Below, piece by piece: positions 1,070 to 60,487 of a stretch of 64,000 bases of DNA. Source of the stretch: Raillietiella orientalis (Eukaryota); contig JAYWIR010000001.1 in the NCBI GenBank assembly GCA_036172245.1, positions 11,036,001 through 11,100,000 of the forward strand, in the 5' to 3' direction. Below the pieces are notes generated by a model. That model was not told the origin of the DNA and searched no databases. It worked only from the letters and a program-made list of their open reading frames with translations. Numbering within the stretch: the first letter of the stretch is position 1; every line of letters starts with the position of its first letter. Position numbers and translations under genes: made by a program.

Positions 1070-3853
1070 TTGTCACCCGGGTGCGCCGGGGCCTTTTTTT
1101 ATAAACTATCCGGGAACAGGGTTCCCGGACAAAGGGGAAAACAAGAGACGAAGGGGGTGGGATCCCCGACACGCAGGTCGGTATATTGAAAGTCCGGAAC
1201 GCGAGGGAGGGGACCACAAATACACTAGTATAAAAGATAAAAATAAAGATATGGGGAGGGTAGGGGACAGGGGTCTTTGGTACGGCCGTTCCTTCCTTTC
1301 AGATCCGGCGATGGATGCCGGCGATCTCTCTCCTCACGCCCTCCGGTAGATGGGCCCACTTGGCAGCCGACGCCATGTTCGCGCTGGCTAATCCGGTGGG
1401 CTGACGAAGGATGGCCAGCTTCTCCAACTCTCGGTGGGCCTTGTCGATGGCGCGGGTGCAACACACCGTTGCGACGACAGCACCCAATGACAGGCCGCCT
1501 GGCGTGAAGAAGCGGCGCATCAAGTCTCTTGCGGTGTCCCCCTGGTGCAGGAGAGCTGAGGCCAGCCTCCGCCACAGTCCTAGGAGGGCACCGCAGTCCA
1601 GGAGCAGGTTCGGGAGCGTTTCCACGTCCCCGCACCGTTTACAGTTCGGGGAGACAACTCCCCCGGAAACACGGTTCGTCCGCTGGTTGGAGTGAAAACC
1701 CCAATGCACCAGCATGGTGACGTCCTGTTTCCAAGTTAAAGGGAACACGGAAGTGTTCAAACAGGAGGGAGGGACCACAAGTTCTTCGGGGGGCACACTC
1801 AAGTGTTCACTCCACCGAAGGAGTCCCTTCGGGATGTGGCGAGGCGTGGCGGCGTCCGCCAGCTCGCAAGTCTTCCAGCCGCCAATAGGTCGCGTTGTTC
1901 CTGCGATGGTGCAGGCGACCTCCCATCTCGCCGGTTCGCAACTGTCATCTCTTGCCCTGAGGGCTGACAGTGCGTCTTCGAAGGGGGTGACGGCCAGGCG
2001 GGTCCACTTCTCCTGGCTGTTGCACACCTCATCCACCGTGCAGTACGGGGAGAGGTGAGCGCAACGGAGTTCCAGGAGGGAAACATCCTGGTGCTTTGCC
2101 CAGCCATGCAACGCCTCCTGCCGCCAGGATTCAAAGTTCGTTGGGCGGCAGGAGATCCATTCCTGGGCTGCCAGGAGCCGGCAGAGGGGCTTCAACGGGA
2201 AACCGAAGCTTCTCGTGGCGCGCTCCGTATGCGGCCGCAGCGACAGAAGTCCATCGCTGCCGGTGCAGCGCCGCAGAAGCAGGCGCGCGGGAGCGCACCA
2301 CGGAGTGGACCAAAGGTTGGCGCACAGGGCCAACATCCGAAGCTGCACCTTTAGCTCGATTCTCTCCAGCGTCAGGATGCCTAACCGGCATCCCGACGCG
2401 GAGCCGCCAAGTCTTTGAGGCGGATCCTGGACCTCGCAGGTCCCCACAGAGCGTTCCTCAACAGGCTGTGCGCCTGGAGCTTGGCCGAGTGGGGGGGCGG
2501 GCAAACAAAAAGCAGGAGGCGCAAGAGGGGGGCAACGAAGGTGTTCCATATCGTAGCCCGCTCCGGCAGGACGAACCTGCCATGGTGGAACGGGCTCAGG
2601 GCATTCGAAGCCTTCCGAAGGCAGTCCGACCACACTTCCACTGGGCTGATGTTCCCCAGCGGAACGCCCAGATATTGCATGGAGGAAGCGGTCGGGATCC
2701 CCAGGCGGATCCAGTCGGACTGCCCCTCCCACGCCGCACCAATAGGCACGACCACGCTCTTGCTCCGCTTTACGCTCATGCCCGCTCCCCGGCGAATCAG
2801 ATCGAAGAAATCCTCGAGACTGGACGCCGGGGTGGTCATGGGTAAGAGGAGAAGCAGGTCGTCAGCATAGGCCGCCACGGACGGCGTTCCTGGACAAGAG
2901 CTCGGCAGGTTGGCCAGCGTCAGCCTGTACGCCCTCAGCACCAACTCAAAGAAGATGCTGAAGAGCAACGGGCTTAAGCTGTCGCCCTGCCTGATGCCCC
3001 GCCGCACCGGCACGCCGTACACGTGGCAGCCGCTAAAAGAGATGGAAATGAGCGCGTGGCGCCAGCAAGCGCGCAAATACGCCACGAGGTGCACCGGGAG
3101 ACCGAGGCGTTCCAGGAGCTCCAGCAGGAGATCCTGATTTACGCAATCGAACGCCTTGCGGAGATCGACCGCGACCGCCAAGGCACCCGGCGCTTCCCCA
3201 GGCCGAATGCAGCGACGCCTTGCCTCGGCAACCGCAGATGCGGTTGCCTGGCTGTCGTGCGCCACGCAGCGTTGCAGCTCGAGCCACGTGCGCGCGAAGA
3301 ACAGGTTCGCCTCCATGGACCGCCCGGGAACAGCGTAAGACTGCTCCGGACTTACCACGGATCCAGCGATCCTGCCCAGGCGCGCGACCCACAGCCTGGA
3401 GAACAACTTGACGTCCGCATTCACCAAAGTGATCGGACGCCAGTTGCTTAAATGGCGCATGTCTCCGCCTTTCGGCAACAGACGCACCCTTGCTGAGCGA
3501 AACGAGGCCGGGACATTGCCCGTCTCTCGCATCAGCGCAGAAAGCCTCAGCACCAGGGGGATGAGTTCCGCCGCGAAGCACTGGAAGAACTCCGCAGGCA
3601 GACCATCCTCACTTGGCGCCTTGCGCTTCTTGAGGTCCTCTATGGCGGAAGACACTTCTTCCGCCGTGAAGGGCAAGTCGAGAGTGGCGCGTTCCTCCTC
3701 GTCGACTGCAGGGGCATCCGCCGGCAGAAGCAGCTCCGAGAGACTGCGTTCCGTCGGCTCCCTAGCATACAACGAGGAGTAGTAGCTCTTCAGGAGGCGG
3801 CGAACGTCGGCCGCTCCCGAGCACTCCAGGCCCTGGTCGTCGAGCAGACAAGC
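1070..3853 (-). mobile_element. 5'-truncated L1/Tx1-clade non-LTR retrotransposon (LINE copy 1)
   Basis: Contains an RT plus a C-terminal zinc-finger region. Bounded by a perfect 15-bp direct repeat CCGTACCGGGACTAA at 1055-1069 and 3854-3868 (TSD). No endonuclease or ORF1 lies inside the TSD, consistent with 5' truncation. Confidence 0.92.
1299..3853 (-). pseudogene. LINE ORF2 fragment: reverse transcriptase + zf-RVT-like C-terminus, one frameshift near 2384
   Basis: ORF 2381-3964 has KAPSEDGLPAEFF, NWRPITLVNADVKL, VDLRKAFDCV, RGIRQGDSLSPLLF and YADD. It stops at 'DAG*', and the expected LGILTL... continues in the frame of ORF 1299-2732, which contains CKRCGDVETLPNLLLDC. Confidence 0.9.
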
Positions 3854-3868
3854 CCGTACCGGGACTAA
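3854..3868. repeat. Target-site duplication, right copy
   Basis: CCGTACCGGGACTAA, identical to 1055-1069; LINE-like protein sequence starts immediately inside it. Confidence 0.9.
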
Positions 3869-5714
3869 GTCGCCTCCATCGCGCCGTCTATTCGTTCTGA
3901 AGGGACGAGGTGGTCGGCACTTGGACGTAATTCCGCTGGCTCCTGGCAGTGAGGACTTTCGCATCGTGCGGTAGGGGAGAGGGTGGGAGTCCCTCGTGGG
4001 AGGAGCGCGCGAGGAGGCGTCAGCGCTCTATCCCCCCGGAGCATGACCTCAGCGGCGGGCCCGCAGATGGTCCCAGGGCATCCGTCGTCGCCATTGTCGG
4101 AAGATCGGGCGATGCTCGTCCAATCGCCCTCAAAGTCCGCCGCCCACTGGGAAACCCCGAGAGCGGTCGCTCGGGGACCGGTTTTTTCTTCCGCTTCGAA
4201 CCGGGAGGAGGAGAAGGCGAAGAGAAACCGGGGAATAAAGCGGGCGGTCGCCTGCTGGTCCCAGTCTCGCCGTCAACAGCGCCGTCGGCCGCGCCGCCGC
4301 TGCTGGCGACCTTTCGCTTCCTGTCGAGGTTCCATCCCGTCTCGCGCCTCCGCGCGGGAGCGCTCCCTGCGCGGTAGCGGTGGTGGCAGCGGCGCGGACT
4401 GAGCCCGCGGGAAGGCTGGGAAGGGAAGGGGGGAGGAGAAGGGGGCTTCGGACGCGCATATAATAATTGCGTCCAGCTGCCAGGACTGCGGCAGTCTCCT
4501 CGCGTTCCCGCGCTGCCTCCCTCCCCCCCGCCGCCTCTCCAGGATCGCCCATTCCGGTGGGAGAGCCGAGAAGGAGGGAGTAAGCTGTAGGCCAAAGATT
4601 TCGTCCTTCTCCCGTCCATCCGAACTTCCTTGTTGGAGCTCCTGAAAGGAAGCCGCCGTTCCCCAAGGAGACCCGTAAATCAAGGCTTTCGACTTCTCTC
4701 CCGATTCACCGAATGCACGTCGTTCCATTTGCTTTCCCGTGTTCTCAGCCGCCGGGAGGAGACGTCAAAACGCGCTGAGATGTCATGGCTGGCAGCGGAG
4801 GGAAGGAGGGGGCCAATTGAATCGAGCACTCGTTCAGCCAGAGGCGTCCTTCCTCTCGTGCAATTTCCGGGTGCAGGGGAGGAAGGAGGAGGGGGAGAGA
4901 TGCACGCGAAAAATCGAATTTCTATCTCCTCGAACTCTTCCTGGTTAATGACTCCTCCCGCTTTCGTTCCTTTCTAATTAACACTCGGAATTCCGCGCGC
5001 TCCTCTTCAGCACCTCGATATCGCGGGCCTCGTCTCATACGGGTGTCCGCTCTGACATCACGAATTTCCCGGTCTTTCCCAGAACACGGGAGAGGGAGAG
5101 GGGTAGGAACCGGCCGGCCCCGGGGGGGGGGGCATATTTCTTCCAGTCTGGTTTCCGGGACGACCGGAACCGGAGCTCACCGACCCGTCCGGTGCGAATC
5201 GCTCGCCCGCGCCGAAAGCACGAAGGTGCGAGGCGTTCGCGGGCTGCTGCTGCCTCCGTTCCCCTCCCCCCCCCCCCTTCCTCCCTCTTCCTTCACCCTC
5301 CGATCCGTTTTCTGTGTCGCTCGCTCGAGGTCCCAGCGGGCGCGCGCGGCGGCTCGCGGAGCCACTGTGTCTCTAGCTGGGCGGGTCCTCAGGCCTCCCG
5401 GAGCGGTGCTACTCCTGCCCGGAAGGCCACCATCTAACGAGCATCCCGCCGAAGTCCTGAAAGGGCGGAAATCGGGCTGTTTCCTTTCTCACGACGCGCG
5501 CACTCGCCAGGAATCACGCGTCACCTCCTTCCCACTCCTCTTTCCCCTAAGCTTTCTTCACCGCCGGAGGGGCAGCTGCAAAGGGAACCGGCACTCCTCG
5601 ATGTCCTGGAAGTATCCCAGAAACTCAGCTTCCAATCCCGTGCGGTCAACGGGAGTTTACGGTTTCCACCCGGATCGCCGCACCCGACGCCCCTAAAGCC
5701 AACCGGCATCATCC

Positions 5715-7814: not shown

Positions 7815-8620
7815 GGGGATTGGGGATCGACTGGGGACCGTGCCCAAAGGCTGTTCTCGTGGAACCCTCCTCCACATCAGACCTCCATGATCTCACTGGA
7901 GTAGTTGCTGCTACCACCAAGATCTGCGCCAGCGGCGGCTCCAGACGAGGTCGCACCCAAACCCTTCTGCGTCCACCGTCGCGACTCTCCCAATCGCCGA
8001 AACTTGACCACCCTGCCGCCCTCCGGAACGCTCCCTGATGGCAGAGACGGCTCCGCCCTGGCGGCTGGGTACAGGCTCGACGCTTGAGCACCACTCATCT
8101 CCAGGGCCGGTTGCTTCGGCAGGTGAGTCGTTGACGACACCCCTTGGCTGATTCCGACTTCCATGGCCACTGTCCTCCTGTCCATAGCGACCAACATCTT
8201 GCGTGGGATCTGATGAGCGTCACATTGGGCGCCGTAACCCAACTTTGGTTCATCCCACAGCGCCTGTTCTGCTCACCAAAATGGGTCTACTGGGCGCTCA
8301 TGGGTTTCATAGTCGGAGCTTCAGCTTTCAAGCAAGCTGGACCTCTCACCCATTACAAGTTTGATAGTGGTTGAGGTCATTTCAGCCACAAGGCCTCGAA
8401 TCATTCGCTTTACCGGATGACACTCCGTTCTTTTCCCGCTTCGGCGAGCTCCAGCTATCCTGATGGAAACTTCGGAGGGAACCAGCAGCTCTAAGATGGC
8501 TCGAGAAGTCCTTTACCCCTACACCCAGAAGCTCTTACGACCAACTTGCACGTCGAAATCGCTGCGGACCTCCACCAGTTTCCTCTGGCTTCGTCCTGGT
8601 CGGGCTTAGTTTATCATCGT
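7815..8620 (-). pseudogene. Decayed internal fragment of 28S (LSU) rRNA
   Basis: Reverse complement of conserved LSU blocks: CTACCACCAAGATCTGC, TTCGGCAGGTGAGT, GATTCCGACTTCCATGGCCAC, GGTTCATCCC, TCATTCGCTTTACCGGAT, GAAACTTCGGAGGGAACCAGC, TTTCCTCTGGCTTCG. Many substitutions and indels; no flanking rDNA. Confidence 0.93.
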
Positions 8621-8894
8621 TGCAAGATGACTGCACGTCAAAGATCATAGAAGGAGGTCCGCAGCTCTTTATTGAGATCAGGTCCCTCACCTTCCAACCC
8701 AACTATGGTCCACCCGACCGATAGACGGATGGGATCCATTCAACCAGTTGGCCAACAGCACCTCTCTCACGGCGTGAGGTATCCCCTTTCACTGGATCAA
8801 AAAACCTGGCGGGATGCGAGCGGCAGGGACGCGCGTGAAGCCTTCCTTTTGGTTTTCCTCTTCTTTCCTTTAGCCAGACGATCCTCGTTGGTGG

Positions 8895-9340
8895 CCTGTT
8901 CCCTTTGGGGTTTCCCTCCTGCTGTGAAAATGGAACCGTCCATTTTCACGACGGGATACACCATGGAGAAGGTTGGTACCCACCTCAGGAAATCGCATCT
9001 CCAGGGTTTGGGGAGGGGGCTGCTCCCTCTTGGGGAGCGGACCGCTCAGGGAAATTTGGAGAAGCATCCCTTCGGGGTTCTCTCCAGAGGAGGAAACGAG
9101 GAGCGATCCCCTTGCGTGCGCCTTCCGGAGAACAAATTGCAGAAGCGGATCCTTCGAAGAACACACGACGAGGGATCCCTTATGAGACAGCCATCTCCCC
9201 TTCCGATGGGGCTCCTCCACCACGCGTAAGAGGAGCGGACTTTATACTCTGGATCCTTCCTGAATTCATAACGTGGCCCCCTCCCGGGTACCCCCTATAA
9301 CTTGAAGAGTTACACGCACCCTCTGGTGGCATGAACAGCT
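8895..9340 (+). repeat. Body of the dispersed SINE-like repeat family
   Basis: Shares GAAGCATCCCTTCGGGGTTCTC..AGAGGAGGAAAC and CTATAACT.GAAGAGTT..CACG..CCCTC.GGTGGC with 22375-22660. Confidence 0.7.
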
Positions 9341-9949
9341 TTAAAGGGCTCTGTGAGTCCCTCTTTCAAGGAGGAGGCTTCAGAACTCCCAGAGAATCTC
9401 CAAAAACCCTTTCGTTTCAGCTTGGCATCTTTGCAACGGTTCGTTTCTTCCTCTCCATTTATGGAGTGTTCATCCAGAAGTATCCATAGATTTGATTTCT
9501 CGACATCTCCTGCAGCCTAATTTGCCTTCACTTTAATCTAACATCCGTCACCCCAAGACTTTGGCGGACTGTGGCCTTTCTCGCAGCGAGCTCGCTTCAG
9601 TGAAGTTAGCATGTTGTTGCTGAGTGGTATTCCAGAAACCTCTTTGCCTGCGCCTCTTTGCGAGTGTTCCGCGCGCCCAATTTCTCGCTCGAGGAGCATC
9701 GGAAACGCTCATCGCTCCTTCCTCTCCCACGAATTCCCCACCTCCGGTCAGCAGCTTGCTTGCTAGCTGTCTTCCCTCTAGTTGAAGGCATGGGAAACTC
9801 TAGGCCGCATGAACCTCCCCCCTCCTCAAAACTTGCTCGAGAGGAACCCCATCGGGATCCCCTCACATCTCTTGAGTGTTTGCCGCTACCGCGAAGACCT
9901 GTGCCAGAGATGGCGGCTCCAAAAGAGCCTTACGCTCGAATCCTCCCGT

Positions 9950-11469: not shown

Positions 11470-12700
11470 GACCGGACTCATTCCTGTTGTCGTGAGCGGC
11501 CTCTTACGGAAGCCCACACACGGATCTCTAGTAGACGGAGCTGCGGAGGGAACTCAGTTCAATCCGAGAATACAAGAAGAAAAGCTCCTGAAGGTTCCGC
11601 GAACAAGGTTGGATTTTTCCGCATGCTACAGCAGCTGCGTCCTCTTGACCTTCGTAACTGTGGATCTCGCACAATCTCCCCTTCTGGACTCTTTCTCGAG
11701 TCCACAGGTCGTAAGGCGGGTGCATTTTCGGATGCACTGCGCACAGACACGGCGTCAGGAGATCCAAGGCGTCCGCGGCATTCTCACTGCCACCAGTGGG
11801 GCGCCTCTCCAGGAAGGAACCCTCTCCAGAGACCATTGCGCTCTTTTTTCCCGCTTCTGGAAATCAGGTGCACAGTGGAGGGACATCTCCGGCCGCTGGA
11901 GATGTAAACTGAACATCGGCAGAAGACTTCAGGAAGAGGAGCTGCATTCTCGAGGAAGATCCCTCAGGGATTCGAACACACTTCCCAAAAATTCGAGAGA
12001 TATTGAGGATCCACCCTCGCCCAGAGCTGGTCCAGAGAAAATGAACAGATCCTGCAAGCAAACGCGAAACTCGATGGCATGGATGGTGTGGCATGGATCC
12101 AGTAAAGGGATTGTTGACCGAACACCCTCGCTGTCTGCTTGAAGATATCGAGGAAGCCATCATGGCGGAAGGAACCAGCCTTCCTACCTCCCACCAAGTC
12201 GTGCGAAACGACTTGAGATATTTCTGGAAACAGCGAGGGACTGCGTACTCAATGCCTGTCCAGCAGGCCTCGAGAGTGGATGATGGACAACGTCATCACC
12301 TTACGGGAACAGAAAGAATTTCTCCCAGGCCCTTGGAGTAGTGCATGGCTCTACAAGTCTACGTACAGAGCTGGGCACCGATCCGAAGATCCGTGCATAG
12401 CTTTCATGGACCTTTCTTGTGCCCTCCGGTGCGGTTATGTATCAGAGGATGCAAGAGACCTTGCGAGAGGCAGAAGAAATCAAAGATGGTGATGCGCGGG
12501 ACAGCGGCAAGCTCTGCGGGGTTAGGTGCTTGACTCACGAGTGCTTACTGCTTCATGCAGTAGAGCAGGAGTCCCTCCCGGCCCCCCACTGTGGAGCCAT
12601 CACTACTTGCGGGGCGCTGGCCAACAAGGCTCTGAACAAATTGATTGGGAATTCCTGTGACGGATACGGTGGCATCCCGGGGAGTACAAACACCCCGGAA
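11470..12700 (+). mobile_element. Probable decayed LINE ORF2 remnant (end of APE endonuclease into start of RT)
   Basis: LVD...TRLDF resembles the APE C-terminus, followed by IEEAI...RYFWK and EDP..AF.DL segments in the order expected before the RT. Multiple stops and frameshifts. Confidence 0.35.
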
Positions 12701-12914
12701 ATCCCTTTCGGATCGATCTTTCCGTGGTGCGATCCTCCCGAGGAGGGGAGCAGGACAAGGGCTCAGAATCCGGTGGGCCGTGCGCTCTCCACCCGGAGCA
12801 CTGCGGATGCTCTGGAAGGCTCCCCTTTGAGCGGAATAAGGAAAAAGTTTCCTTCGGGGTTCCCTTCGTAGGCAACCAGAACGAGAGTTCCCTACCAAGC
12901 GTAAGAGGAACGGA

Positions 12915-13363
12915 TAGCAAAAATTCTGACAGGGAAATACCACAAAATCTATTGGAGTGATTACTAATTCTAAGCAAAAAGGATGCCCTATCGTCTGCTG
13001 ATGAGATATTGAAATACTTAAAGTTAATGTACAACGAATACAATTGGGAAGTAGAGATAAAAGGTGGAGAAAGAGAAGCGCATATCTTTAAGTTATTTCA
13101 GGGACTGGCAGACAAATATATATTTCCGCTTAGCATGCTTGACAGTAAGGAAATACTTGGTATATTGAGTTCTCTTGATGACGTAATTGACCTATCCAGT
13201 GGTGATTCATTTTTAAAGTCACAAGAAACTGAAATAAAGATTAAATCTCCGAGTGCACTTGCAAAAATAATAATAGACTATGGTAAAAAAGGTTTAACTC
13301 TGCAGAGATTTAAGGGTTTTGGCGAAATGAATGCCGATCAACTTTGGAAGACCACACTTAATC
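12915..13363 (+). pseudogene. gyrB: Horizontally acquired bacterial DNA gyrase subunit B C-terminal fragment (Wolbachia/Rickettsiales-like)
   Basis: Translates [24 protein letters not shown]...[28 protein letters not shown], matching the GyrB signature QR(Y/F)KGLGEMNxxQLWETTxxP. In-frame TGA at 12958-12960; L>F and E>K changes at conserved motif positions. About 34% GC by hand count of 12961-13320, against GC-rich flanks. No introns. Confidence 0.9.
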
Positions 13364-13536
13364 CTCCTTCCTCTGGAGCCTTCCAGGATTCATGGGGTTA
13401 CATACTAACCAGTTGCGTTAGGATGCACGGAAAACTCTCATCCGAAAGCACCGGAACCACGTTCTAGGCGGGCCTCATTGCACGCCGTCCCGCTTCCCGA
13501 GGGCTGCCTACGATTTTCGGATCGCGAATGCTTCTT

Positions 13537-14500
13537 TTCTTACCCGGTTGCTCCGCGACGTTTATTCACGGATGAACGAACCATCTGAGAACAGAGTTCC
13601 TAGGCAAAGGGACGAGAAGTTCGAGAGAGGGCTCCCCGAAACTCAGATCGGGCACACTGAAAGTCCAGGTACCTGAGGGAGGAGACAATAAATAAATACA
13701 AAAAGATAAGATGAGGTAGAGGACAGGGGTCTTTGGCTTCGGCTGTTCCTTCTCAGAACTGGAGCTGAATGCCAAAGATCTTCCTCACGCCTTCTTTGAG
13801 ATGAGGCCACCTAGCAGTGGTCCTGATGTTGCCATCTATGATTCTCTGTTGGGGTCGCTCGCGACTCCAACATGTGCTGGGCCATGAGGATGGCGCGGAT
13901 GCAACTGATCATTGCGATGACCGCACCTAGCATGAGGCGCGTGAAGCGGTACATGCCCCTCTGGTGCGGGAGCTCTGAATCCAGACTCCGCCACAGTCCT
14001 TGGAGTGCACTGCAGTCGAAGAGCAGCTGCAGGAGCGATTCCACTGCTCCGCACTTTCCACAGTTCGGGGAGACAACTCCCTCGGGCAACAACTCCAGGC
14101 GGCGGTGATCAGACGTGACGCAGCTGCAAGAGACCCCTCCCGAACCCGCCTCCAGCAGCGGTCTCGGCCCATCTCTGCATCTCTGCGAAACGAGAACGAG
14201 AAGCACTGGACTTCCACTTGCGGCTGGTCCCGGATATGCCGTTGTGACGGGAGCTGTCGAATTGCGAACTCATGTCACCGCCAGAGAGCACTTAGACCCT
14301 CTCGGTCGCTGCAAAGGGATTCCACACACTCCAGAGACGTCTCCAAAGGGATCGGTGCGCGCCGTCCTCGCGGGACAGTTAGGACTGCGAGCCACGATCG
14401 AACACTGTAGGATCTCTGGAAACCTCTGGAACCTTCGGCGAGATTCTGTGGAGATCCAAACTGCCATCCAGCGTCAGACGCGGGGACAGCATCTGCTGGA
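13537..14500 (-). mobile_element. Degenerate LINE (copy 3), same family as copy 1
   Basis: 3' UTR is colinear with copy 1 (GGACAGGGGTCTTTGG; CCTCACGCC) and shares the identical block ACAGTTCGGGGAGACAACTCCC. Peptide GVVSPNCGKCGAVESLLQLLFDC. May extend to ~15050 (MLLIRLAAQVLLYGAAP). Confidence 0.85.
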
Positions 14501-17500: not shown

Positions 17501-20100
17501 TTCTTCACGTTTGGATCAGATGCGACGTCTTTTCTTCGGTAGCGGCTCCAGTGCTCGCTCCACTCTCGGATGGCTCGGGATTCCAAGTCTTCCTTGACTG
17601 CAGAGGTGAGAATCCACTAGAGAGAGTCGAAAACGCTTTCTTCGGAGGCGAATAGGTGTGGGGAAAGGGTTGATGCGTGGGAGAAGGAAGGGTTACCGCT
17701 AGGAGGTGAAGATCTGGAAAAATTCTAGAAGAAAAAAGAAAACGGCAGATGTCAACTCGTGACCACTCCTCGGGGGGATGACCAGGCTAGGATGGATCCC
17801 TACAAAGGCCATCAACAATGCTTTGCCTGTCAGAGGCAATTTCAGGGTCCATAATGGGTATCCGGGTGGCACACCTCATGGCGAAGGCAAGAAAGAAAAA
17901 AGAAAAAAAAGGAACAGAGAGTTCCTGTTCCTGTTCCAGAGGCCGATCGAAGGAAGAGCTAGTTACTCCCAGGAGCGAAGAACGCGCTCTGCTTCGACGC
18001 AGAGAGAGTTCAGCAGCTCCCCAGACTCGACTCCGCGGAGCCAACCAGGAAACCGGCAAGAGCTGGCAGCAGCGAGGAGACGGCCGCGACCGATCCCGTG
18101 AGTGCACACTGTAAGTGGGAGCTTCCAGGCCGCGGTCGCAGAGCAGAAAGATCCCGGGTAATGGCCAGGCTGACGAAGAGAAAAGGCATGTGCAGACAGG
18201 CAGTCGTTGGCGCTACACGATGGCGTCACCGCCGGCCAGACAACCCGGACAAGAAGATTCAGTTAGCTGTGAAACCGTCGGTTCATCTCCGCGCGCAGCT
18301 CTTTCTTCCCTCGACTTCGTTGAGGGCGAGGAGACCGCGGAGCGGTCAAACGAGTCAAACGTCTGCTGAACCCCGGGAAACAAAGGCAATGAGAAACAAA
18401 ACAAAAGAAACAAGCAAATGACAAGACACTGGTGAAGGACGAAGGAGACCACTCGCACGGATCGTGGGAGAGCTCAAGTTGTTCGGCGGGGTAATCGGAA
18501 GCGAAATCCGATCCTCAGCTCGCGGAACGTGCAGATGAGTGAGTGATGTTTGGCATGGCAACGCGAGGATGTGCAGCGAGATAAATCCTCGTTTGAGATG
18601 ATGCACATGACGTCCCGAAATCGGAATCGCATGGATAGCAGCTTCGTTTCGGCTGGATGCTTGCATCCTCCCCCCCCCCCCCCCCAGACGGTTTTCCCTG
18701 ACGAAAGAGATGATTGCGGAAATCCTGAGGCAATTCAAAACGAACACGAGAGATGAGCCGTTCTCCACACTTGGACCCCCCCCCCCTCCTCTTTCTCGGA
18801 AGGCAGCGAACGCTCCTTGCACCGGCAGGGTGGTGCTTCTTGAGGCTGTGCCTGCAGCGGGGGGTTTGTAATAATGGGTGGGTGGGGGACCAAGATCACT
18901 TTTCAGGACGTAAGGCACAAAGCACGAATGCTTCCGGACCCATCGCTAAGAACTTGAAGGCAAAATTTCTTCAGAAAGTTCCGTTCGGAGACTTCAGAAC
19001 GACGACCTAGAAAATCCTTTCGCGCCGCTTGGGAGCGTTTCCGAACAGCCTTCCTCCGGGATGCCTGTAGACGTCTGAGAGCATGATGAGCGCTTGGAGA
19101 CAGGTACCTCCTCTTCCCGCGGGCTTCCGGCTCGTCGTTCGCGAGCGACGGTGTTGCGGTGTCCAAGACACAGTGCGTCGCGGTCCTTCCCGGTTCGTTT
19201 CTCGTCTGAACCCGTCCACGACAAGTTCAGGCCCTCGACACGCTCGCCGAGACGAGGGTTCGCGTCGCCAAAAGCATCTCCCTGCTCCCTCCTCCGTTTC
19301 CCTCCCTTTCTCCGTTGACGAAATTCCTCCTTGTCCACTCTCTTCCCTCTGTGAGTGTCTGAACACCAGAGGAAAGCTTCTCCCTGCCACTCGGGGCTAC
19401 GCGACCAGGAAGAGTCTTGTCGTGGCCTCGGTGAGAAAATTCGAAGATGCACCCGGAATTGGATTACCCGGCGTGGGCTGGGAAGGCGCGTGTGGTAAGG
19501 CGCACTGATCCGGGATCGTTGTACGGATGCCCGCCGTTCCTCACCGATTCCCGGACGGAGGATCCATGCTGATCAGCATGACGAGAAGAGCTGTCCCGGA
19601 AGTTGGATGGCGCCCCCAATGCCCGCCGTCGGTGCGCTGGAGACCGACACCTCGCTTCCCGCTTTTCGCACCGAAGGACCATGGAGGATTCTGGAGATTC
19701 CGTAACCGGGCTGCAGGTCGTCTTTCAGGGAGGAAGAAGGCGGGACGAATCTTGCAGCAGCGTCAGTGGCAGGTAGGCAGGCTGACGTCTGAGCTGGCTC
19801 AAGGCGGGTATTCGAAAAGGAAAAGCCAAAAATCGCAATTTGGGAAGTTCGCCCCTGACGTACACCCGTGGAAGGAAGGGGAGGGGGTGGATTTCTTCCG
19901 ACCCGTTCATGATTTGACGCGAGACAGCGTGGAGACCTCTCATCCAGAAATACAAGAAGCAAGGAAACGGCGCGTCTTGCCTCATACAGCACATCATGCC
20001 TCAGGAATTTTGTGTTAACGGCGAACACCTCCGATTTGCGGATTTATGCGTGCGGTACGAGGTGACCTACTTCCCGTTTCTCCGTGGCTTGCCGTGGTTG

Positions 20101-21829: not shown

Positions 21830-22680
21830 CCGCGTGACCACACTCCCTGCGCTCCTGCGCTTATCACCGAACGTCGCGGGTTCCGGATCCCCACTTGGAG
21901 GATCGACGCCAGAGAAACGGGCGCGTCGTGGGTTTCGAGTCCCCACCGCAAGATGACAGTGGATGGTCTATCCGGGTGCGGCAGCACTGCCAGAAACCTC
22001 CGCATGTCCCTGTTGAGTGGTCAGGATTGGAAGTCGACCCTCCGGGGTCCTTACAGTACATCAAGGAGTCCTTCTGAGTTTTTCCGCTCCGTTGTGAAGA
22101 TGGAGCTGTTATCATGGAACTGATTGAAACCCCTCTCGGGAATCTGCACCTTCAGAGTTTAAGAGGGGATGTGCGGAGAGAACCCCCTCAAACACTTTGC
22201 CAGCAATGAAACCGTGATCGAGGGCTCATCTTAAAATGCCCTGAGGCGTGATGAAAACCAGTTCGAACCCAGTTCTCCAGAGCAAAGGGAAGGTGAGCGC
22301 ACCGGACAGGATGTCACGAACAAGGATTTAAGGGGGCGCTGCTTCCTTCTAGGAGCGCCCTCCAAAGAAAATGGGAAGCATCCCTTCGGGGTTCTCTTCA
22401 GAGGAGGAAACCAGGAGTGTTTTTTTTGCAGGTGTCTTCCAGGGAAGAAACGAGGAGCGACTCACTCTGGGGAACCCTTCCGGAGAGAGTGGAGCTGCTT
22501 CGGAGCTACTTTCGTAGGGTGGAAAGTGAAGAGTTCCCTACCAAGCGTTAGAGGGAAGGACTCCTTCCCCCAAGGCCTTCCTGGATTCACAGGATGGAGT
22601 TTTTCCGGGATACCTTCTATAACTCGAAGAGTTCACACGTGCCCTCAGGTGGCGTAGACGGAGCTTTGTGAGCCCCCCTC
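21830..22680 (+). mobile_element. Near-complete copy of the tRNA-headed SINE-like family, with a nested 150-bp insert
   Basis: Head is homologous to 44090-44345; body is homologous to 8895-9340 and to 56380-56600 (-). Confidence 0.65.
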
Positions 22681-23619
22681 CAAGGAAGCGAACGGTTCTT
22701 CAACACTTGGAGGAGAAAAAAAAAAGGAACGCAGCGAAGACAGAAGACCTGTGCAATCCACTCCTGTGAAACTTCTGGTGCATTCAAATTCTGTTGGCAA
22801 GTGTCTGACAAAAAAAGAAGAAAAAGAGCCCAGCAGCCAGACGATTCACCACTCCGGGATCATTAGCGTCTGCGGTCTCCGAAGAGCTCGGCACGGCTCG
22901 AGTCGATTAACACTGCGTCTCTCTCCCTCGGCTCCTGGAGACGGTCGCTTCTCTTGCGTTTGCAGCTTCCAGTTGGCTCCGCGGCACCCGTTGGCTCCTT
23001 CGTCGCATTCTGTTCGATTGATTGAGGGGGGCTGAAGGGAGGGGGAACACCGTCCCGCTCGAAAATCCACCTGCAGGCTGCCTCGTCGCCCACTCAAGTG
23101 TGGATCGTGTTGCACGAGAGTGTCCACTCCGCCCTGCTTTTTCGATTGAGGTCACTCGTTTGCATCTTCAGCAAAAGATCCACGACTGCTTCCCCTCTCG
23201 GTTGCATCGGGAAATCTTTGAAGAGAACGCGAAGGTGCTGAAGTGGGGTACTCCGGAACTCACATCTCTTTCTCTCCGTCTGCATGACTTCTCCGTCTCT
23301 CCTCAGCGCTTGTTTCCGATTGCGGAACGCCCTCGCCAACTCAGAACCATCCCTTCACTGTCGCACTGGTGGTCCAGACTCTGCTTCCCACCTGCTGATC
23401 CTCTCGTGTGGGACCAAGACCGTGCGCGCTGGCGGTGGGAAATCTTCCAGCCTTCCAGTTGGAATGAATCGGTCGCGCGGGAATCGCCCGACCAGGCCAC
23501 AGTACCGAACTGACCCACGGGAAAGGCTGCGTTGAGGTCGTAGTTTCCATTACACTGTTAAAGAGCTTCCCTGAAGCATTGGGAGGTTGAAAAAGAAGAA
23601 GGCGACTCCGAAGAAAAAG

Positions 23620-23850
23620 GAAAGACTTGTCGTCCATGTGCCATGCCTATACAAGAAGATTCCCGGAAACAGGAAGCGGAAAAGACCTTGACAGTGTTGA
23701 ATTCAAAAACACGAAAAGCTTAATGGAACTGTGACAGAAAAGATAGAAAAATTCGCACTGTGCATTTTGAAACGTCGCAATAGTGGCAAAAAGAGTGAAG
23801 AAAGACTTGGCATCCTTATGCCATGCCTAAGAAAGAAGATTCAAGAAAAC
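23620..23850 (+). repeat. Two diverged ~50-bp direct repeats 180 bp apart
   Basis: GAAAGACTTG...TCC..TGCCATGCCTA...AAGAAGATTC...GAAA at ~23621 and ~23801. Confidence 0.7.
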
Positions 23851-26707
23851 TGTAAGGTGGGACAAGGTGGCATATTTAATTACTCTAGACTCCAGAGGAC
23901 TCTGGAATGGTCTCATTGGAAGACCAAATTCCCGATTCTGGGTGAAGATCAGCGCTTTTTGCGGCCGAATTGATTGCAAGAACGAGAAAATTCTGGGATT
24001 CATCGAGACTTCGGTTTCAAATTCACCTTTCCAGCGTATTCCCTTAACAGTTCCAGGCTACTAGTCTCTGCTGCCTCGAGTCGATGGGAATCCGTGCAGT
24101 ACCAACATTGTGCCAATCTTTCCAACATTCTGGCGTTGAGGTGCATCCCATTTGCAAGTCCACGGTGCTCTTGCCTGCTAACCGCGACCAGAAAGATTCC
24201 ATTTCCGATCGCCTCGGTTAGCAGCAGCAGCAGCGCTTCCCGGTAATTCCTGCTTTACAGTTCAGTTTCCCGGCTGCCCATGCCAGCAACTTGATTCTGT
24301 GTGACAGTTCTTAGGAGGGAACAGTTCCATTCGGCTCGCGCCGATTTTTCCCAGAGGTTCGTCCATAAGTGACCTTTCTGTCTTGAAGACTCCCAGGAGT
24401 GAGCAAGAAAGGGGCTAGCGGGAGCTCATAGGACTATTAGAGATGATGCTGAAGAGTGCATTTTTTTTTTTTTTCAACATTCGGAATTATCTCTGGAGCG
24501 CGGGCTTATCCCGAACACTTCTGCAGAATGAAAATGGTCCGTTGGAAATTCCCTATAGATACTTATCTCGTCGCGGGTCACTCCTGGTTTCTCATCTTCC
24601 TTGCGACGTCTCCCACCAGGATTATGAAGGCACGGAGACTTGAATTCTTCTTCCGAAACCTTTGGATTCCGAGCGTGTGCTCGGAATCCAAAGGTTGGCT
24701 GCATCAGTGAACCACGAGAATGACTGGTCAGCGGTGAACTGAGGTCGTGCATCCGCGCGTATAGCCGACAACATCGGGCAGAAACCTTACGGGACCAAGA
24801 GTCAATATGGCATCGCAGCTGATGGTGTCCTGAACTTAGATGCAGGGACCGATTTCGTGGACCTGGAGGAGCTGGAGGGGCTGGAGAAGCTGGAACAGAG
24901 ATGTGAGGAAGAAGTGAAAGGAAAAATTCGTCTCTCCGACGTCCTCAGTGTGCCTTCGTGGGTCTCTTCAGCGTGCGTTACGCAAGTCAAGACAATAGCC
25001 CAGCTGCCTGAGGACAGCATGCCCGAAAACACCGAGAGGTCCCTTGATCTGATGATCAGAGCGTATCTTGAAAGCTGCGGAGGGGAGCAGGAGAGGGACA
25101 CCCCAAGACTAGGGGGAGTCGGTCGGAGTCCGAGCTCCGCCTTTCTTTTCTCCTCGGGGCTCGGGACACCGCGCTCGCTGAAGGCATCCGGCAGAAAGCC
25201 AGGAGCTTTCCCCAGTGCACCCCAGATGTACTTTCCTTGGGTTGCTTGGAGAAAGCGACGACCCCGGTACCGTCAAGATGAGGAAACTGGAATGCGGGCT
25301 CGAAAAAACGAGGTGGGAGGCGGAAGCTGTCGCGACCGTCAAGCCTGCCCGCGGGCAACTGCCTACCGTTCAGCCCACCCTACAGCACGTGGCCTCCCTT
25401 TGTTTCAAAACCCTCTCGAACCTACGGAAAGCCTTTGGGACGTCTCCTGAGGAGACAGCGAAGATGCAATCGCTCTCGATGGACGCTTGCCAGTCTCACT
25501 TAGCAGGACTTGCTGAAAGATGGGAATGCAAGAAAAAGGAGAAAGAACCTTCCAGAAAAGGTCACCTTTTCTACAGAGGTGTTCCTACAGAAAGAACGCA
25601 ACGGAGGACTCGGAGCTTTGCTACTCCCCCGGGTCCAGTTCCTTCGGAGGAATTGCTGGAAAAGACGGTGACCGGTGAGAAGAGAGTCGATTTCCCTTGG
25701 GAAGGCGCGAGGACTATCGTGTCCGTCGGATCAAGGCCGTTCCGTACATCCTGCAGGAGCTCCTTTCGCGACCACGGGATTCCCTCGGGACTCGTCGCCG
25801 CAAGAATGCCTCCTGCGGGCTCTCAGTCCGGGAGGACAACCCGCGCAACCGCTGTGCCTCTCTCGGAATCCCCTGGAGCGCAGAGGATGCGCGCACAGGG
25901 AAATCAGCCATGTACTCCTTTGTCACCCGCTCCTCTTCTCCCGCTCCCAGCCGTTAGTTTATGCTTCCTAGAGGAGTTCAGGGTAGAGAGTGGTCATGGA
26001 ACAGCATTGGACGTGCGTTCGCCGCTGTTCTTCCTCGCTTGCTTTGCTTCGTGTACTCTCGTCCTACTCAGACAACCCCAGCGAAAAGAAGGGAGGACAG
26101 AGGAAGACGGAGAGACGGACTTGTTTGAAGAAGACAGAAAGGAGATCCCACAGGATGATCTGGGATGCAAGAGGACGGTAGTCAATAGGAGGAAGAGGAA
26201 GGGCATTCGAGGTGAGGCAGCGGAAGGTGCACCAATGAAAAGAAGGGGGACGTGAGGATGGATTTCACTTCCCACATCCCAACCTTGGTGCTCCCATACA
26301 GCTACCGCGGCCTCGCCAAAATGGTGCGACTCCTACCACGCCCCTTCAGCAGAAAGATTCCTCAAAAATTCGTCGCCTAAGAAACCGCCGGCGAGTTTGA
26401 TCATCCACGTGTGCGTGTGTATATTTTTTTCCTTCCTCCTCCTCCTCTTACGCCCATTGTTGTTTCCACCAGATACAAAAGAAAGGCGAAAAAAAGAAAA
26501 AAGGTCGAAGACAGGGAAGGAAGAAGGGAAGATCATCGTGAAGAGGAGGAAGGGACTAATCCGAGCGTCAGAAGAAGGGACGTACGTTCTCCTCTAGAAC
26601 TTTCGGATTATGCCCCGCGGTCCTGCGCCAGCCGACGCCTGAACCGCGCCAAAATCCCAAGACGTCGTTGTTGTGAAGTAGCAACAAGGAGCGACTTCAC
26701 AGGCATC

Positions 26708-29700
26708 ATGGAAGCGGACAAAGCTCAGCCGGAAGAGCGCTGCGCGGAGGAGGAGGTGGATACCATCGGAAGGGCCATCAGCTTTCAGGCGATGCAGGCT
26801 CTGAACGACATGCGCCACCAGAACATGTTGTGCGACGCCACGATCCGCTGCAGCGACGGAGGAGTCTTCCCTATCCACAGGGCCATCCTGTCGGCGTGCA
26901 GCCCCTACTTCAGGTTTGGGAGAGAAAGTACTCCTCTTTGCTCCTATCCTTCTCCTGCTGCGGAAAAGAAAGAATTCCTCTCTTCCTCTGACCGTACGAC
27001 GGAGGCTGGGAGAAGAGGGAGAGAGGAACGTTGGGAGGTTGGGTCTCCTCATCTAGGGAGAAGGGGGCAGTTTCAAGACTCCCACGAGGGTTCCTCTTTA
27101 TTTGGAATGGAAAGGAGAAATGCGACAGACTCTGCAATGGACTTCTTCCCCAATTCGCGCCGACCTTGCTTTTCAGGACCAACGCATGCAACGGACACGG
27201 AAGAGCGATGGGTCCTTGCCATTCCTCATCCTCCCTTCCTTCCTTCCCATCCCCTCTTCTTCCCATCCTTCCCTCCTTCAGTGTTCATTTCCAGGGCGCT
27301 CTTCACCACGACCCTGCAAGCCCAAGAGAAGACTGACATCCAGATCCCTGGGGTCAGCTCCGAGATCATGGAGCTCATCATAGACTACGCGTACACCCGA
27401 CAGACTCGCGCCAACACCGAGAACATCACGCAGCTCCTCGAGGCTGCCGACCAGTTCCACGTCATGGGAATGCTTAAGGACTGCTGCGAGTTCCTGGTTG
27501 GCAGTCTCACCCCTGAGAACTGCGTGGGAATTCAGGAGTTTGCCAAGTAAGTCTTCAATCGCTTCCCAAGAGATGCGGAAGGCGGTGTCGGACTCCTGTC
27601 CCTTTTCACCTATTAATCATCCTCCACTTTTTCTACTACTCATTCTTTCCCATTCCTCCTGCCCTCTTTTCCCCCTCTCCCTTTACCCCTTTTCCCTTTA
27701 CCCCTTTTCCCTCTCCCTCCTGCCTTCTTTCCTTTCTCTCCCTCTCCTTCTTCATCCTTCCTCCTTCTATATGCTTTCTTACCCTCCTCCTACCACCCCT
27801 CCTGGCGTCGTCTCCCTGACTTAATCTTTCATCCCCTCTCATCCCTTCTCCCCGGTTTCGGATCGTCGGTTCCACTTCCTTTCCCTGGGTGGCTCATGCA
27901 GGTCCCCTTCTCCTTCAACCTACTTGCGAGGCCACCTTCAGGAGGAAGAAGCGGGAACACGTGCCTTCTAGGAGCGCGGTACAGCGGCGGCAGAGTCCCC
28001 TGCCGCGGCTCTTGCAGAGATTCCGCGGAAACCTGGAAGCCACCCGCTCGAGGTGGGAGCCTCCGAGGATTACCAGCACCGAAGTTCTCGCTCTGGGGTA
28101 TTCCCCGCCTCGCGGCCTCCCGGATGTCCGAAACTGCGACTCCTGTAGCAACCTCCAATGCTGGAGCTAGCTATCCGGGGACCGCGGGTGCCCCCTAGGC
28201 CCCTGCGCTTGAGCGAAAGAAAGTAGTCCTTGGAAGGTACCCCTGGATGCTTCCACCGTGCGTCCTTCCTTCTCTCTCTCTTTCTGTGCCTCCTCGGGCC
28301 AGCAGCCTCTTTCCGCCTGCTCACCAGGGCGTTCTTGAAGGACATGAACGAGAAGGAAAGGAAGCACTTCCTCCCATTTTCCCCCGTCCTGAGCCCGCCT
28401 CCCCCTCCCTGTCTCCGCGAGCGAGCATGTGGGCGCACACTCGGGCGATCTCCTTCCAGGGTCTTCTTCTGCAAAGAGCTGGAGCAGGAATCCTGGACCT
28501 TCATCATGAGGAACTTCCCGGAGGTGTCAAAGCAGAGCGAGGAGCTTCTGGAACTCCCCATCGACCGCTTCCTGCCCATCCTTGGATCGGACGAGCTCAA
28601 TGTCAGGAACGAGGAGATCGTCTGGGAAACTGTACTCCGGTGGCTAAACAAGAACCCCGAGACCAGGAAGGTCCACGTCGTCGACCTGATGAAGCAGATT
28701 CGTCTGGGACTCCTGGACACGCAGTTCTTCGTCGAAAAGGTGAGCTCGCCCTCGGGGCTTGGAACTCATCAGGGAGGTCTGCGTTTCGGAAGGGTAGGTT
28801 AAGGAAGGGGGACCGAAGGCTTCCTTGCGCCCCCTCTTTCGTTTGCGCAAGAAGGTCCATTCTTCTCAGGAGAGCAAGGGTGTCCCGCCGGCATTTCTCG
28901 TGGGTCGTTTTCCTCCTCCCCCACTCTGCCACCCTCCCTTCTCTTCGGGACGGCGCTCCGAAAGACCCGAGTCCTGCATCGGATGGGCGCTTCTGTAAAG
29001 AGGGGAAGGGAGGAGGAGCAGGAAGGATGACGGCGGGGGAGGTGAAAAGGGGGGAGCAACGGAGACTGGGCTGGCAACATTCGTCGCTTCCCAATCGCGA
29101 AGAACGCAGCTCCTCTTCACCAGATCGGTTGCTTACGTCACACCAAAGCGGGGGAGAAACCGCGCCTCAGGGCTACGGGAGGCTTGTTGACCGCTCCTCT
29201 TCCTCCTCTTGCGCCTTCCGTCTGTATCCTCAGGAGCAGACCGTCCTGGTCTTCTCCCGCTCGCGAGGTCGCCCCCGTTTTCTGCGGAATTGCAGAGTTT
29301 CGGGGGAGAAGAACCGTTTTCTGCGGAATTGCAGAGTTTCGGGGGAGAAGAAGGGTAAGTGGGACACTGCCACCGTCTTCGTCCACCCTGAGGGTGTGCG
29401 CGATCTCCGGAAAAGAGACGGGCGAGGTCTTGAAGGACCGGTCCACGAGGAAGGGAACACGAGGTCGCAAATGGAGCACGCTGGCCTCGTCTGCTCGCTT
29501 AGGGATATTTTCTGGAGCGCGGAAGGGGTCTGGGCGGGCACCCGGGTCTACAGGTCATTCCCTAGCCGCTGCATTTCGAAGCAGCTTTCCTGCCTCCTTC
29601 ACAAGGAACGCCTCGATCCGTACCTCAACTCTTTCCTAACCTGAAGATCACTTCCTTGAAGGGGTCTGCAACCTTCACTCCTCTGGGTGGGTCGACCCAG

Positions 29701-32700
29701 CGTGAGGCCCACCTCACCCTCTCCCTTCCCCTGCAGGTGAAGAACAACCCTTATGTGCTGGAGAATGAGGCATGCCGGCCGCTCGTCATCGAAACCCTTA
29801 AATTTCTGTACGACCTGGAGATGATCACACAGAAGGACGGAGAGGTGGTCACCCCGGAGCTGGCCAGACCCCGGGTACCCCACGAGATCATGTTCGTGAT
29901 CGGCGGCTGGAGCGGAGGAAGCCCCACGAACTTCATTGAGACATATGATACCAGGGCAGACCGGTGGGTCAAGGTGAGGGGTGCACCCTTTCCCGCTCCC
30001 CTCCCTCTTTTCCCTCCCTTCCTTGCGCCAGGTGAACGAGGTGGATCCTGCCGGCCCCAGGGCCTACCACGGCACGGCGGTCATCGGGATGTGCATCTAC
30101 GTGGTGGGAGGCTTCGACGGCATGGACTACTTTAACTCGTGCCGCTGCTTCAACGCCGTCACCAAGGAGTGGAAGGAGGTCGCCCCCATGAACGCTAGGA
30201 GGTAATCCGCGGAAGAGTTTCCTCTTCCGCTGAAAGCACGGGTCGGAAGGGGGCAGAGGGTGGGAGATAGAGGCAGAGAGGAAAGGCGAAAGTGGCGGCC
30301 GCCCTTCCCAGCTCCCTGCCTTCGTCCACGTCCATCCTCCCCCGTGCGCCCTCGCCGCCCGCCCCTCGGGGCAGCGTGGCGCGGCGACATGACGACATGT
30401 CTTTCTTTTCCGCGTGCTCCCTTAAGATGCTACGTGAGTGTGGCGGTTCTGGACGACATCATCTACGCCATGGGAGGCTACGATGGCCACCACAGACAGA
30501 ACACCTGCGAGCGCTACAACCACAAGACGAACCAGTGGTCCCTCATCTCCACCATGAACGTCCAGAGGTCGGACGCCTCTGCCTCCACGCTGAACAGTGA
30601 GTTGCGACAGTCGCGGGAGGGGGAGGAAGGGGAAAGGGAATCCACGCACCCCTTCAGCTTCGTGAAAAAAGGAAGAATCGCTCGCCGATCCGGAAGAGGA
30701 AGGGAAGGCAGGGGGAGCAGGAACGGGCCGCTCTCCTCGCCGGTGCTTCCCTGCGCGCTCCCTGACGGCGCGCTAGCGCTGAGCTCGTCGGGACGCAGGG
30801 TCTGCAAGGGTTGGCTAAAGAGGGGAAGGAGGGGAGAGGAGGAAAGCGGGAAAGATAGCGAGACCTTTTTCTTTTTAGGGAGAAAGGGTGGGGTGAGTAA
30901 AAAGGGGTTGAGATGGGACTGCGTAGTGGTTCCATGTGAGTGGACGGGAGGCAGGGACCACCTTCATTTGTTTCCTTTTCCCCCTTCCCCCTCCTCCTCC
31001 TCCTCTCCCTTCTTTCTTCCTTCCCTCCTCCCTTCCTCCTCCTTTTTTCCCCCTTCCTTCGACCTCCCTTCCTCCGCAGGAATGGAAGCAGAATGAGGAC
31101 CACCGCTTGCGCACTCTTCCTTGACTCCACCTCACCACCCTTTTTTGCCCTCTCTCCTTTTTTGTCCTCTTCCCGCCTCTCCCAGGGAAGGTCTACATAA
31201 CGGGAGGCTTCAACGGGCAGGAATGCATGAACACTGCCGAGGTGTACGACCCCGACACGAACCAGTGGACGCTGATCTCCCCCATGAGATCCCGAAGGAG
31301 CGGCGTCTCCTGTATCGCCTACCATGACCAGCTCTACGTAATAGGTGAGGATGGGGCGCGCGCCGAACCCAGAACAAGACGGTAACAGGGACAAGGATGG
31401 ATGAAAATGAGCGAGGGAGAGAAGGCAACGGTGGGAAGGAGTGTCCATTCCTTTCCGTCCGCATTCCCTTTTCGATCACGCACGTTTCTCCCAGGCAGGG
31501 GAGCCCCCTCCTTCCTCCTCCTCTTCACCTCCCTTCCTGCAGCGCCCTCCTCCTCCTCCTCCTCTTTCCCTAGTTGGTTCAAGCTTGTGTGGGGTGATGT
31601 GCCCGAGATATCCCGCCGTCTTTCCTGGGGGAGGACCTTGGATTTTCGCGGAGGGCAGGCAAAGAGGCGCCTCTCCGTTCCCGCACCTGTCGCCCCCTCT
31701 CTTGCTTTCGTAGAGTAGCGGTCGTAAGACTGCTCCCGGAAGACGCACGGTCACGCTTCCCGGAGAAAGGAAGAACATGAACTCCCCCTTGCCCCCTTCA
31801 TCTCTAACTTTTTGTCCCTCCAGAGACGCGAAGCATCCTCCTCCCCTGCAGACGAAGGGGGGCTTCACCAGGGCGATGGCGGGCGGAGGCCTTTTCGTTC
31901 GTGCGCAGAGCCACCTTCAGATCGCCCGAATCAGCGCGGACGGCGTTGCTGATTCTTCCCGGAATGGCACGAGTTCGGTCCTCTCCCAGCCCCTCCCTCC
32001 CCCCTTCCTTCTTCTCCGACGAAACGGGTCTCCATGGCGACGGGGAAGCGCACGCTGCTTGGCAGCAGGCCCTTCTGGAATCCTCTGTGAGGCGGGCGCT
32101 TCAGCAGCAACCGGAAGGAAGGCGAGACCGCCGCCGAGCAGCTCTTCGTTCGCTACGGCGGCCCCCTGACGTTCCTTGAGGCGTCCACCGCTCACGCACT
32201 CTCCCGTCTTCCTTCCCTCCCTCCCCCCTCTTCACGCGCCGCGGGAGCCCCTGATGCTGGATCTCCCTCATCCTCTTCACTCGCTTCCCATCCGTTCCAT
32301 CCTCCCCGCCCGTCCGTCTTCGTTCCCATCCCTGTGCTTCGGTTCTTCTTGCTGCTCCCACCTCCGCGAGAAGTTTCTTCCCGTTCGCTGCTTGGGAATC
32401 CACCGCGCGCTTCCTTGCGGTTGCCTCCCGGGAGACCCTGGAAGCGGAAGAATAGGAACGTGTCTCGCACCCGCGCGTCTCTTCCCAGAGGGAGTCGCCC
32501 TGCGGCTGGGTAGCTGCCAGGGCACCGCGAGCAGCCGCACGCAAGGAAGAACGACTCCCGTTTTCTAACCCTCCTCTCACCCCACCCTCTGGAGGGCAAC
32601 ACGGGGCAGCAGTGTTCCCCCCCCCCCTCCACGAGTTTTCGAAGGAACCGAGGGTGACCTCCGGGCAAGCAATCTAACCGTTAACGTTGCCACTCCGCGT

Positions 32701-45024: not shown

Positions 45025-45240
45025 CACGTCACCCGAGGGTGAGTGCTAACTCTTCAAGTTAGGGGACCACACTACGAATCCAGAAAGGGCTCCGGAGAAA
45101 TGATTCCGTTCCTCTCAAGCTTGAGAGGGAACCCTGAAGGAAACCATTCACCCTGAATGGCTCCTAAGGGAACTTCGAATGGAACCTCTTCCTTATTGTC
45201 TCCGGAGGGGCCCTGGGAAAAGCCACTCCTCGTTTCCTGA
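45025..45240 (-). repeat. 3' part of the SINE-like repeat, inverted
   Basis: Reverse complement GTTCCCTCTCAAGCTTGAGAGGAACGGAATCATTTCTCCGGAGCCCTTTCTGGATTC...TAACTTGAAGAGTT matches 22531-22640. Confidence 0.7.

Positions 45241-59552: not shown

Positions 59553-59583
<31 letters not shown>

Positions 59584-60453: not shown

Positions 60454-60487
<34 letters not shown>

Follow-up and report, generated by a model that had tools for sequence, protein, structure and literature searches.

Genomic context of the locus

The window analyzed here is one continuous 64-kb stretch of DNA, whose eukaryotic content comprises a fragment of large-subunit (LSU) rRNA, a reverse transcriptase, a BTB/Kelch gene, and a MON1 exon (Table 1). 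Among solved relatives of the BTB/Kelch gene, the best is Kelch-like protein 3. The top BTB clusters in the protein atlas are most commonly from Arthropoda, and MON1 yielded a single match, to a cladoceran protein at 40% identity. These weak taxonomic hints suggest a metazoan host, probably an arthropod. For the reverse transcriptase, a single relative reaches 64% identity, a protein from a metagenome contig, and all others, drawn from very diverse eukaryotes, lie at ≤30%, a pattern which suggests that public protein data cover the host lineage poorly.

Base composition shifts sharply along the window, from a GC content of 0.50–0.66 in the repeat-rich first 46 kb (1–46000) to 0.33–0.50 at 47000–64000. 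The LSU rRNA fragment, which may be an ectopic rDNA pseudogene, is unaccompanied by other rRNA parts in the window. It lies ~4 kb from the gyrB insert described below and adjoins the host repeat copy at 9013–9379.

Table 1 Features located in the 64-kb window, in order of position.
Feature	Position	Strand	Evidence or remark
Reverse-transcriptase ORF	2381–4024	−	Pfam RVT_1, E 1.3e-21
Partial eukaryotic LSU rRNA fragment, isolated	7919–8693	−	Rfam RF02543, model positions 668–1452 of 3401, 390 bits
Host repeat, uninterrupted paralogue	9013–9379	+	nhmmer; blastn 82% over 51 nt across the junction
Host repeat (~370 bp), left part of a truncated, diverged copy	12803–12914	+	nhmmer profile positions 136–231, E 3.8e-9
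Wolbachia gyrB-derived insert, predicted pseudogene fragment	12915–13363	+	449 bp; ~residues 596–744 of the 792-aa GyrB
In-frame TGA stop, from TCA (Ser) by C>G	12958–12960	+	Translation; Wolbachia alignment
Host repeat, right part of the same copy	13364–13398	+	nhmmer profile positions 233–266 at 13365–13398, E 7.8e-4
Second Wolbachia-derived fragment (62 bp), PD-(D/E)XK (PF12784) transposase-family gene	17796–17857	−	blastn, tblastn
Host repeat, uninterrupted paralogue ("empty site")	22326–22690	+	nhmmer E 1.4e-101 (copy used in the profile)
KLHL-like BTB/Kelch gene exons	26381–31093	+	BTB ~27293–27502; Kelch motif ~30425–30568
Host repeat, partial copy	44446–44568		Profile of three full copies
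Host repeat, uninterrupted paralogue	44984–45329	−	nhmmer; blastn 70% over 122 nt across the junction
MON1 exon	50029–50643		In the AT-richer part of the window
Host repeat, partial copy	56491–56363 (descending coordinates)		Profile of three full copies

An AT-rich insert carries part of a bacterial gyrB

An earlier note on this DNA had described a 449-bp AT-rich segment encoding a C-terminal part of GyrB, and both the composition and the gene assignment were borne out. The GC content of the insert is 0.347, compared to 0.575 in the left flank (12600–12914) and 0.528 in the right flank (13364–13700). Scanned in 150-nt windows, the first 47 kb contain no other strong AT island, and GC at the insert falls as low as 0.31. 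Read in frame from 12913, it translates to 151 codons including one stop. The 135 residues past that stop match both the Pfam domain DNA_gyraseB_C (E 1.2e-10) and the NCBIfam model PRK14939, "DNA gyrase subunit B" (E 4.8e-18, profile positions 631–756 of 803). The gyrB piece lacks a start codon, covers ~19% of the gene, and is present as a single copy, i.e., in a blastn search of the 64-kb window it matches itself alone. The second-lowest GC island of the GC-rich part, at 23611–23930 (minimum 0.37), bears a local direct duplication of ~180 bp and no Wolbachia similarity.

The donor belongs to Wolbachia and probably resembles supergroup F

At the DNA level, the insert was matched in all 60 Wolbachia genomes searched. 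In the best two (G031 and G011), nucleotide identity reached 93% across all 449 nt, and the alignment to one Wolbachia sequence (L085) showed 93.1% identity over 449 nt with 0 gaps; the insert is ~7% diverged from every sampled Wolbachia. In every comparison, Wolbachia homology begins at 12915 and stops at 13364/13365. When prokaryotes were scanned at one genome per species, 583 of 600 pattern matches were confirmed as relatives. Wolbachia took the first two places, with 86% and 80% amino acid identity, and the next genus was Anaplasma, at only 40%.

We then placed the insert in a maximum-likelihood DNA tree built from 449 columns and 30 Wolbachia rows plus the insert. There, it was nested in an 11-row Wolbachia clade (support 99/93), at the end of a branch of 0.064 compared to a median of 0.016. 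The donor is, as judged from these alignments and trees, Wolbachia, in agreement with the Wolbachia-like assignment of the earlier note, which had named BLAST searches and a gyrB phylogeny as the means of checking it. As for the lineage within Wolbachia, the closest named protein is that of wCfeF, the Wolbachia endosymbiont of Ctenocephalides felis (90%), a strain which belongs to supergroup F according to a passage in PMC10438800. A protein tree limited to 149 amino acid columns placed the insert in a 9-row clade (support 86/81, not starred) together with five F-named strains, i.e., wCfeF and those of Melophagus, Menacanthus, Mansonella, and Madathamugadia. Given how short the piece is, we describe the donor as probably "supergroup-F-like", with moderate support.

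Seventeen sequencing runs each contained ~5% of the sampled words of 12500–13800, and four of these runs were compared with the locus. One run (X11) provided seven live-Wolbachia contigs, all within 12915–13365, which part from the window at the two ends of the insert and run on as gyrB sequence. A second run (X2) provided one contig at 13315–13355, and for the other two (X1 and X8) none was placed on the locus. The matching contigs are live Wolbachia relatives, not host. A search of metagenome contigs with a 30-mer of the left junction gave 0 matches.

The fragment has decayed since leaving the bacterium

Next, we evaluated whether the insert still evolves as a bacterial gene does. At the in-frame stop, base 12959 is a C and the codon encodes Ser in 30 of 30 Wolbachia rows, and a live-Wolbachia contig of run X11 also has C at this position. 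Overall, 11 bases of the insert are private, i.e., absent from all 30 Wolbachia rows, and 11 of 11 are non-synonymous. The private changes at residues invariant in all 30 rows include Y>S, S>stop, F>S, M>I, and L>F, so that the stop codon and the conserved-residue substitutions noticed earlier are both real features of the alignment. Since a filter for private changes enriches non-synonymous sites, the same filter was run on every Wolbachia row as a control: the ratio of private non-synonymous to synonymous changes was 11:0 for the insert and 49:40 for the pooled Wolbachia rows (Fisher p 0.003).

A second estimate compared the insert to the majority consensus of ten clade members, from which it differs by 15 synonymous and 17 non-synonymous changes. 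The resulting non-synonymous to synonymous ratio on its branch (17:15) exceeds that of the pooled living clade members (52:125; Fisher p 0.013). Likewise, dN/dS is 0.26 for the insert, compared to 0.04–0.16 for the ten living clade members and a median of 0.09 across 435 Wolbachia pairs. We regard the two p values, 0.013 and 0.003, as moderate evidence for decay.

Although raised, a dN/dS of 0.26 is well below 1, which suggests that the lineage passed the greater part of this branch inside a living bacterium or that the closest donor is unsampled. To separate these components, we used a two-phase model combining a bacterial omega of ~0.09 with a neutral omega of 1 (input dS 0.191, dN 0.049). 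Under this model, ~0.035 substitutions per site (roughly 3–4%) would have accumulated since release from constraint, and the rest of the insert's branch would represent divergence of the unsampled donor lineage. Drift toward the base composition of the host was considered and rejected: the base changes in the insert comprise 20 AT>GC and 10 GC>AT, which amount to about equal per-site rates given a source that is 68% AT.

The insert is, on this comparative evidence, a predicted pseudogene evolving without bacterial purifying selection. With no start codon, a small share of the gene, and a later history of unconstrained evolution, it would qualify as a dead nuclear Wolbachia transfer (NUWT). Alternatively, the piece may have been domesticated, because a frame at 12961–13467 remains open past the stop for 168 codons and runs from the insert into host sequence, making it a candidate for an expressed chimeric gene. 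This frame covers only part of the GyrB domain, however, and alters invariant residues, while long frames are frequent in GC-rich DNA (94 frames of at least 150 aa in the window). We therefore find domestication scarcely credible.

The insert interrupts an old copy of a host repeat

Both flanks of the insert are halves of one host repeat in the assembled window. This repeat is ~370 bp long, and its copies are 70–85% alike. To locate the insertion point, we built an nhmmer profile from three full copies: the left flank stops at profile position 231 (window 12914), and the right flank resumes at position 233 (window 13365). The left flank alone matches 22530–22560 at 90% over 31 nt (blastn). When the insert was cut out by script and the joined flanks were aligned to the rest of the window, they matched three uninterrupted copies without a gap across the junction, at 22530–22589 (85% over 60 nt, E 9e-14), 9219–9269 (82% over 51 nt, E 7e-9), and 45197–45076 on the reverse strand (70% over 122 nt, E 2e-9). 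The gapless alignment of the flanks to uninterrupted copies reported in the earlier note is thereby confirmed at three paralogues.

Since the flanks end and resume at neighboring profile positions, no host base was lost or duplicated, within the resolution of paralogues that are 70–85% alike. These empty sites are indeed paralogues (70–85% over 51–122 nt) and not orthologous alleles, so that a gain or loss of 1–2 bp is possible. Target-site duplication is absent at the insert, as seen both from the profile positions of the flanks and from a reading of the junctions, and the earlier statement that there is neither such a duplication nor a flank deletion holds at this resolution. At the right junction, the CT at 13362–13363 can be attributed to either donor or host, which verifies against Wolbachia sequences a 2-bp overlap already pointed out. 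At the left junction, we found an additional 1-bp overlap, in that host repeat and Wolbachia source both have the A at 12914. Chance alone would fairly often produce overlaps as short as these 1 and 2 bp, so that they do not prove the use of microhomology. Read directly, the ends of the insert display no poly(A) tail, inverted ends, duplication, or other transposon marks.

An inverted repeat with a 7-bp stem, formed by 12904–12914 with 13364–13374, brackets the insertion point, which lies within its 3-nt loop. The same mini-hairpin occurs in the 22-kb copy (22552–22568) and is absent from the 9-kb copy. We rejected a target-site hairpin as the cause of breakage, with DNA fold z-scores (0.16, −1.25, and −0.58) that were not significant compared to shuffles.

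The nature of the repeat itself was evaluated separately, as it had been labeled "SINE-like" in the earlier note. ARAGORN detected 0 tRNA-like genes in the 64-kb window, and Rfam at the gathering threshold gave no tRNA, 7SL, or 5S match for the repeat. Relaxing Rfam to E 1 on 22200–22800 produced only a chance-level lncRNA match, although an old, degraded SINE head could escape both the ARAGORN and the Rfam tests. An A-run follows only the 22-kb copy, ~25 nt beyond the profile end, and none follows the 9-kb and 45-kb copies. Shared terminal inverted repeats were not found, with one weak pair (25 nt, 72%) in 1 of 3 copies. Having neither a tRNA, 7SL, or 5S head nor a shared A-tail, the repeat does not bear out the SINE-like label.

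The position of the insert within an interspersed repeat, together with the reverse-transcriptase ORF in the same window, leads to the question of whether a transposon was involved, i.e., whether the gyrB piece was carried as repeat cargo or was reverse-transcribed, and was perhaps amplified with the repeat. Yet the insert is missing from all three of the other copies in the window that extend across the site, and its ends are devoid of a poly(A) tail, a target-site duplication, and inverted repeats. In addition, the similarity of only 70–85% among repeat copies, compared to ~3–4% neutral divergence for the insert, indicates that the repeat burst is older. A transposon-mediated origin is hence highly improbable, and the same difference in divergence suggests that the insert entered a copy that was already old.

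Wolbachia DNA in the window is limited to two short fragments

To evaluate how much Wolbachia DNA the window holds, we searched it whole by blastn against seven Wolbachia genomes and, as 1810 six-frame pieces, by tblastn against a complete Wolbachia contig of 1,451,416 nt. Beyond 449 bp and 62 bp out of 64 kb, neither the seven-genome blastn nor the one-contig tblastn revealed any Wolbachia-like DNA. We took as chance a palindromic match at 51413–51459 that occurred on both strands (E 1e-4), a match at 59686–59716 (E 9e-4), and four tblastn matches at E ~0.01.

The second fragment, of 62 bp, is separated from the gyrB insert by 4.4 kb, and its translation gives a match of 22 residues. Its blastn matches span 49 of 60 Wolbachia genomes, with up to 92% identity over 59 nt. 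The Wolbachia source gene is multicopy, and one copy (L083:886–1737) was identified as Pfam PDDEXK_2 (E 2.3e-48). The end of this fragment and its left host flank have four bases, ATGG, in common. A paralogous empty site was not found for the fragment.

These searches bear on the possibility of an assembly artefact or contamination, in which live-Wolbachia reads were wrongly joined into a host contig. Wolbachia contamination is common in arthropod assemblies, which counts for such an explanation. A mis-join, however, would not pick up the host repeat again at the immediately following base, nor would it be expected to present a stop codon together with 11 private changes of residues that are conserved in 30 Wolbachia. 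The absence of indels over 449 nt argues against noisy-read error, and the Wolbachia-like portion of the window remains confined to the two short pieces at both the DNA and protein levels. An artefact is thus very unlikely, and a chimeric assembly appears to be ruled against by evidence which is indirect but strong.

Another reading is that the insert is a secondary copy, derived from an older and larger NUWT elsewhere in the host genome, e.g., as filler DNA in break repair. If so, part of the decay would be older than this insertion. The proximity of the second Wolbachia fragment and the ~7% divergence already separating the insert from every sampled Wolbachia are consistent with such a history, as are reports that NUWTs frequently occur in several copies or undergo duplication once transferred (PMC3849323; PMC4299567). 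On the other hand, only one copy of the insert is present within the 64-kb window, and the data require no intermediate, making a secondary copy unlikely.

Capture by end joining is the best-supported origin

Taken together, the locus is very probably a genuine NUWT captured by end-joining repair and is now a dead pseudogene. Specifically, a short double-stranded fragment of ~447–450 bp, internal to gyrB and released from a supergroup-F-like Wolbachia endosymbiont, would have been captured at a chromosome break in the host germ line. Break repair would then have ligated it, by non-homologous or microhomology-assisted end joining, into a pre-existing, old copy of the ~370-bp repeat. After integration, the fragment would have evolved without constraint toward its present state of a dead nuclear Wolbachia transfer. 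Capture by end joining is suggested by the base-precise break in the host repeat, the absence of a target-site duplication, and the overlaps of 1–2 bp. The earlier note had already proposed a decaying bacterium-to-animal transfer through end-joining repair, and the stop codon, the branch ratio of 17:15 against 52:125, and the junction anatomy all support it.

A broader scenario can be drawn for the region as a whole, in which two propositions are combined: that the gyrB insert and the 62-bp piece are fossils left when a GC-rich and little-sampled metazoan lineage, possibly now Wolbachia-free or never known to be infected, harbored an F-like Wolbachia, and that 7.9–17.9 kb, including the LSU rRNA fragment, is a break-prone region which repeatedly captured stray DNA. 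We put forward this combination only tentatively, and consider it doubtful that both of its parts hold.

NUWTs matter as a record of past or present Wolbachia infections, and this one would be of higher value should the host turn out to come from a group in which Wolbachia is not known. Such transfers also mislead symbiont screens and the decontamination of assemblies: here, gyrB PCR or read mapping would score the host as infected. Finally, the pattern of decay makes it possible to tell the bacterial phase of the fragment's history apart from its nuclear phase.

Comparison with known transfers

The insert resembles the NUWTs of arthropods and nematodes, which are likewise non-functional Wolbachia-derived fragments within host chromosomal DNA. 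Its length of 449 bp is typical, as passages of PMC12693587 give an average of 434 bp for Onchocerca NUWTs, describe the "vast majority" as non-functional, and report F-derived NUWTs scattered among filarial and strongyle nematodes. In Brugia malayi, NUWT junctions are enriched in intergenic DNA, according to a passage in PMC3849323. Across 45 termite and 2 cockroach genomes, a preprint estimates 281 transfer events, comprising 289 genes and 2,494 pseudogenes, with Wolbachia as the main donor and with the PF12784 transposase and information-processing genes among the termite transfers (bioRxiv 10.1101/2025.03.16.643567). The large Wolbachia insertions of Drosophila ananassae, Callosobruchus chinensis, and two termite cases resemble the insert in donor genus and in the direction of transfer, but span tens of kilobases to whole genomes, compared to 449 bp and 62 bp within 64 kb here. 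GyrB-like entries from Callosobruchus, annotated as "unnamed protein product", were among the protein matches of the insert.

In its junctions, the locus is also akin to mitochondrial and plastid insertions (NUMTs and NUPTs) formed by end joining, sharing with them a short foreign filler at a break, no target-site duplication, an overlap of 0–4 bp, and no flank loss. Insertion of NUMTs by end joining at double-strand breaks was reportedly described by Ricchetti et al. in 1999 and by Hazkani-Covo and Covo in 2008. The donor of the present insert differs in being an intracellular bacterium instead of an organelle, and the mechanism proposed for it derives from junction anatomy only. Overall, this is a genuine but ordinary NUWT that involves no new mechanism, and whose integration site is unusually clean and internally documented. 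It does not differ in kind from other NUWTs; what sets it apart is that paralogous repeats in the same window allow the site of integration to be reconstructed at single-base precision.
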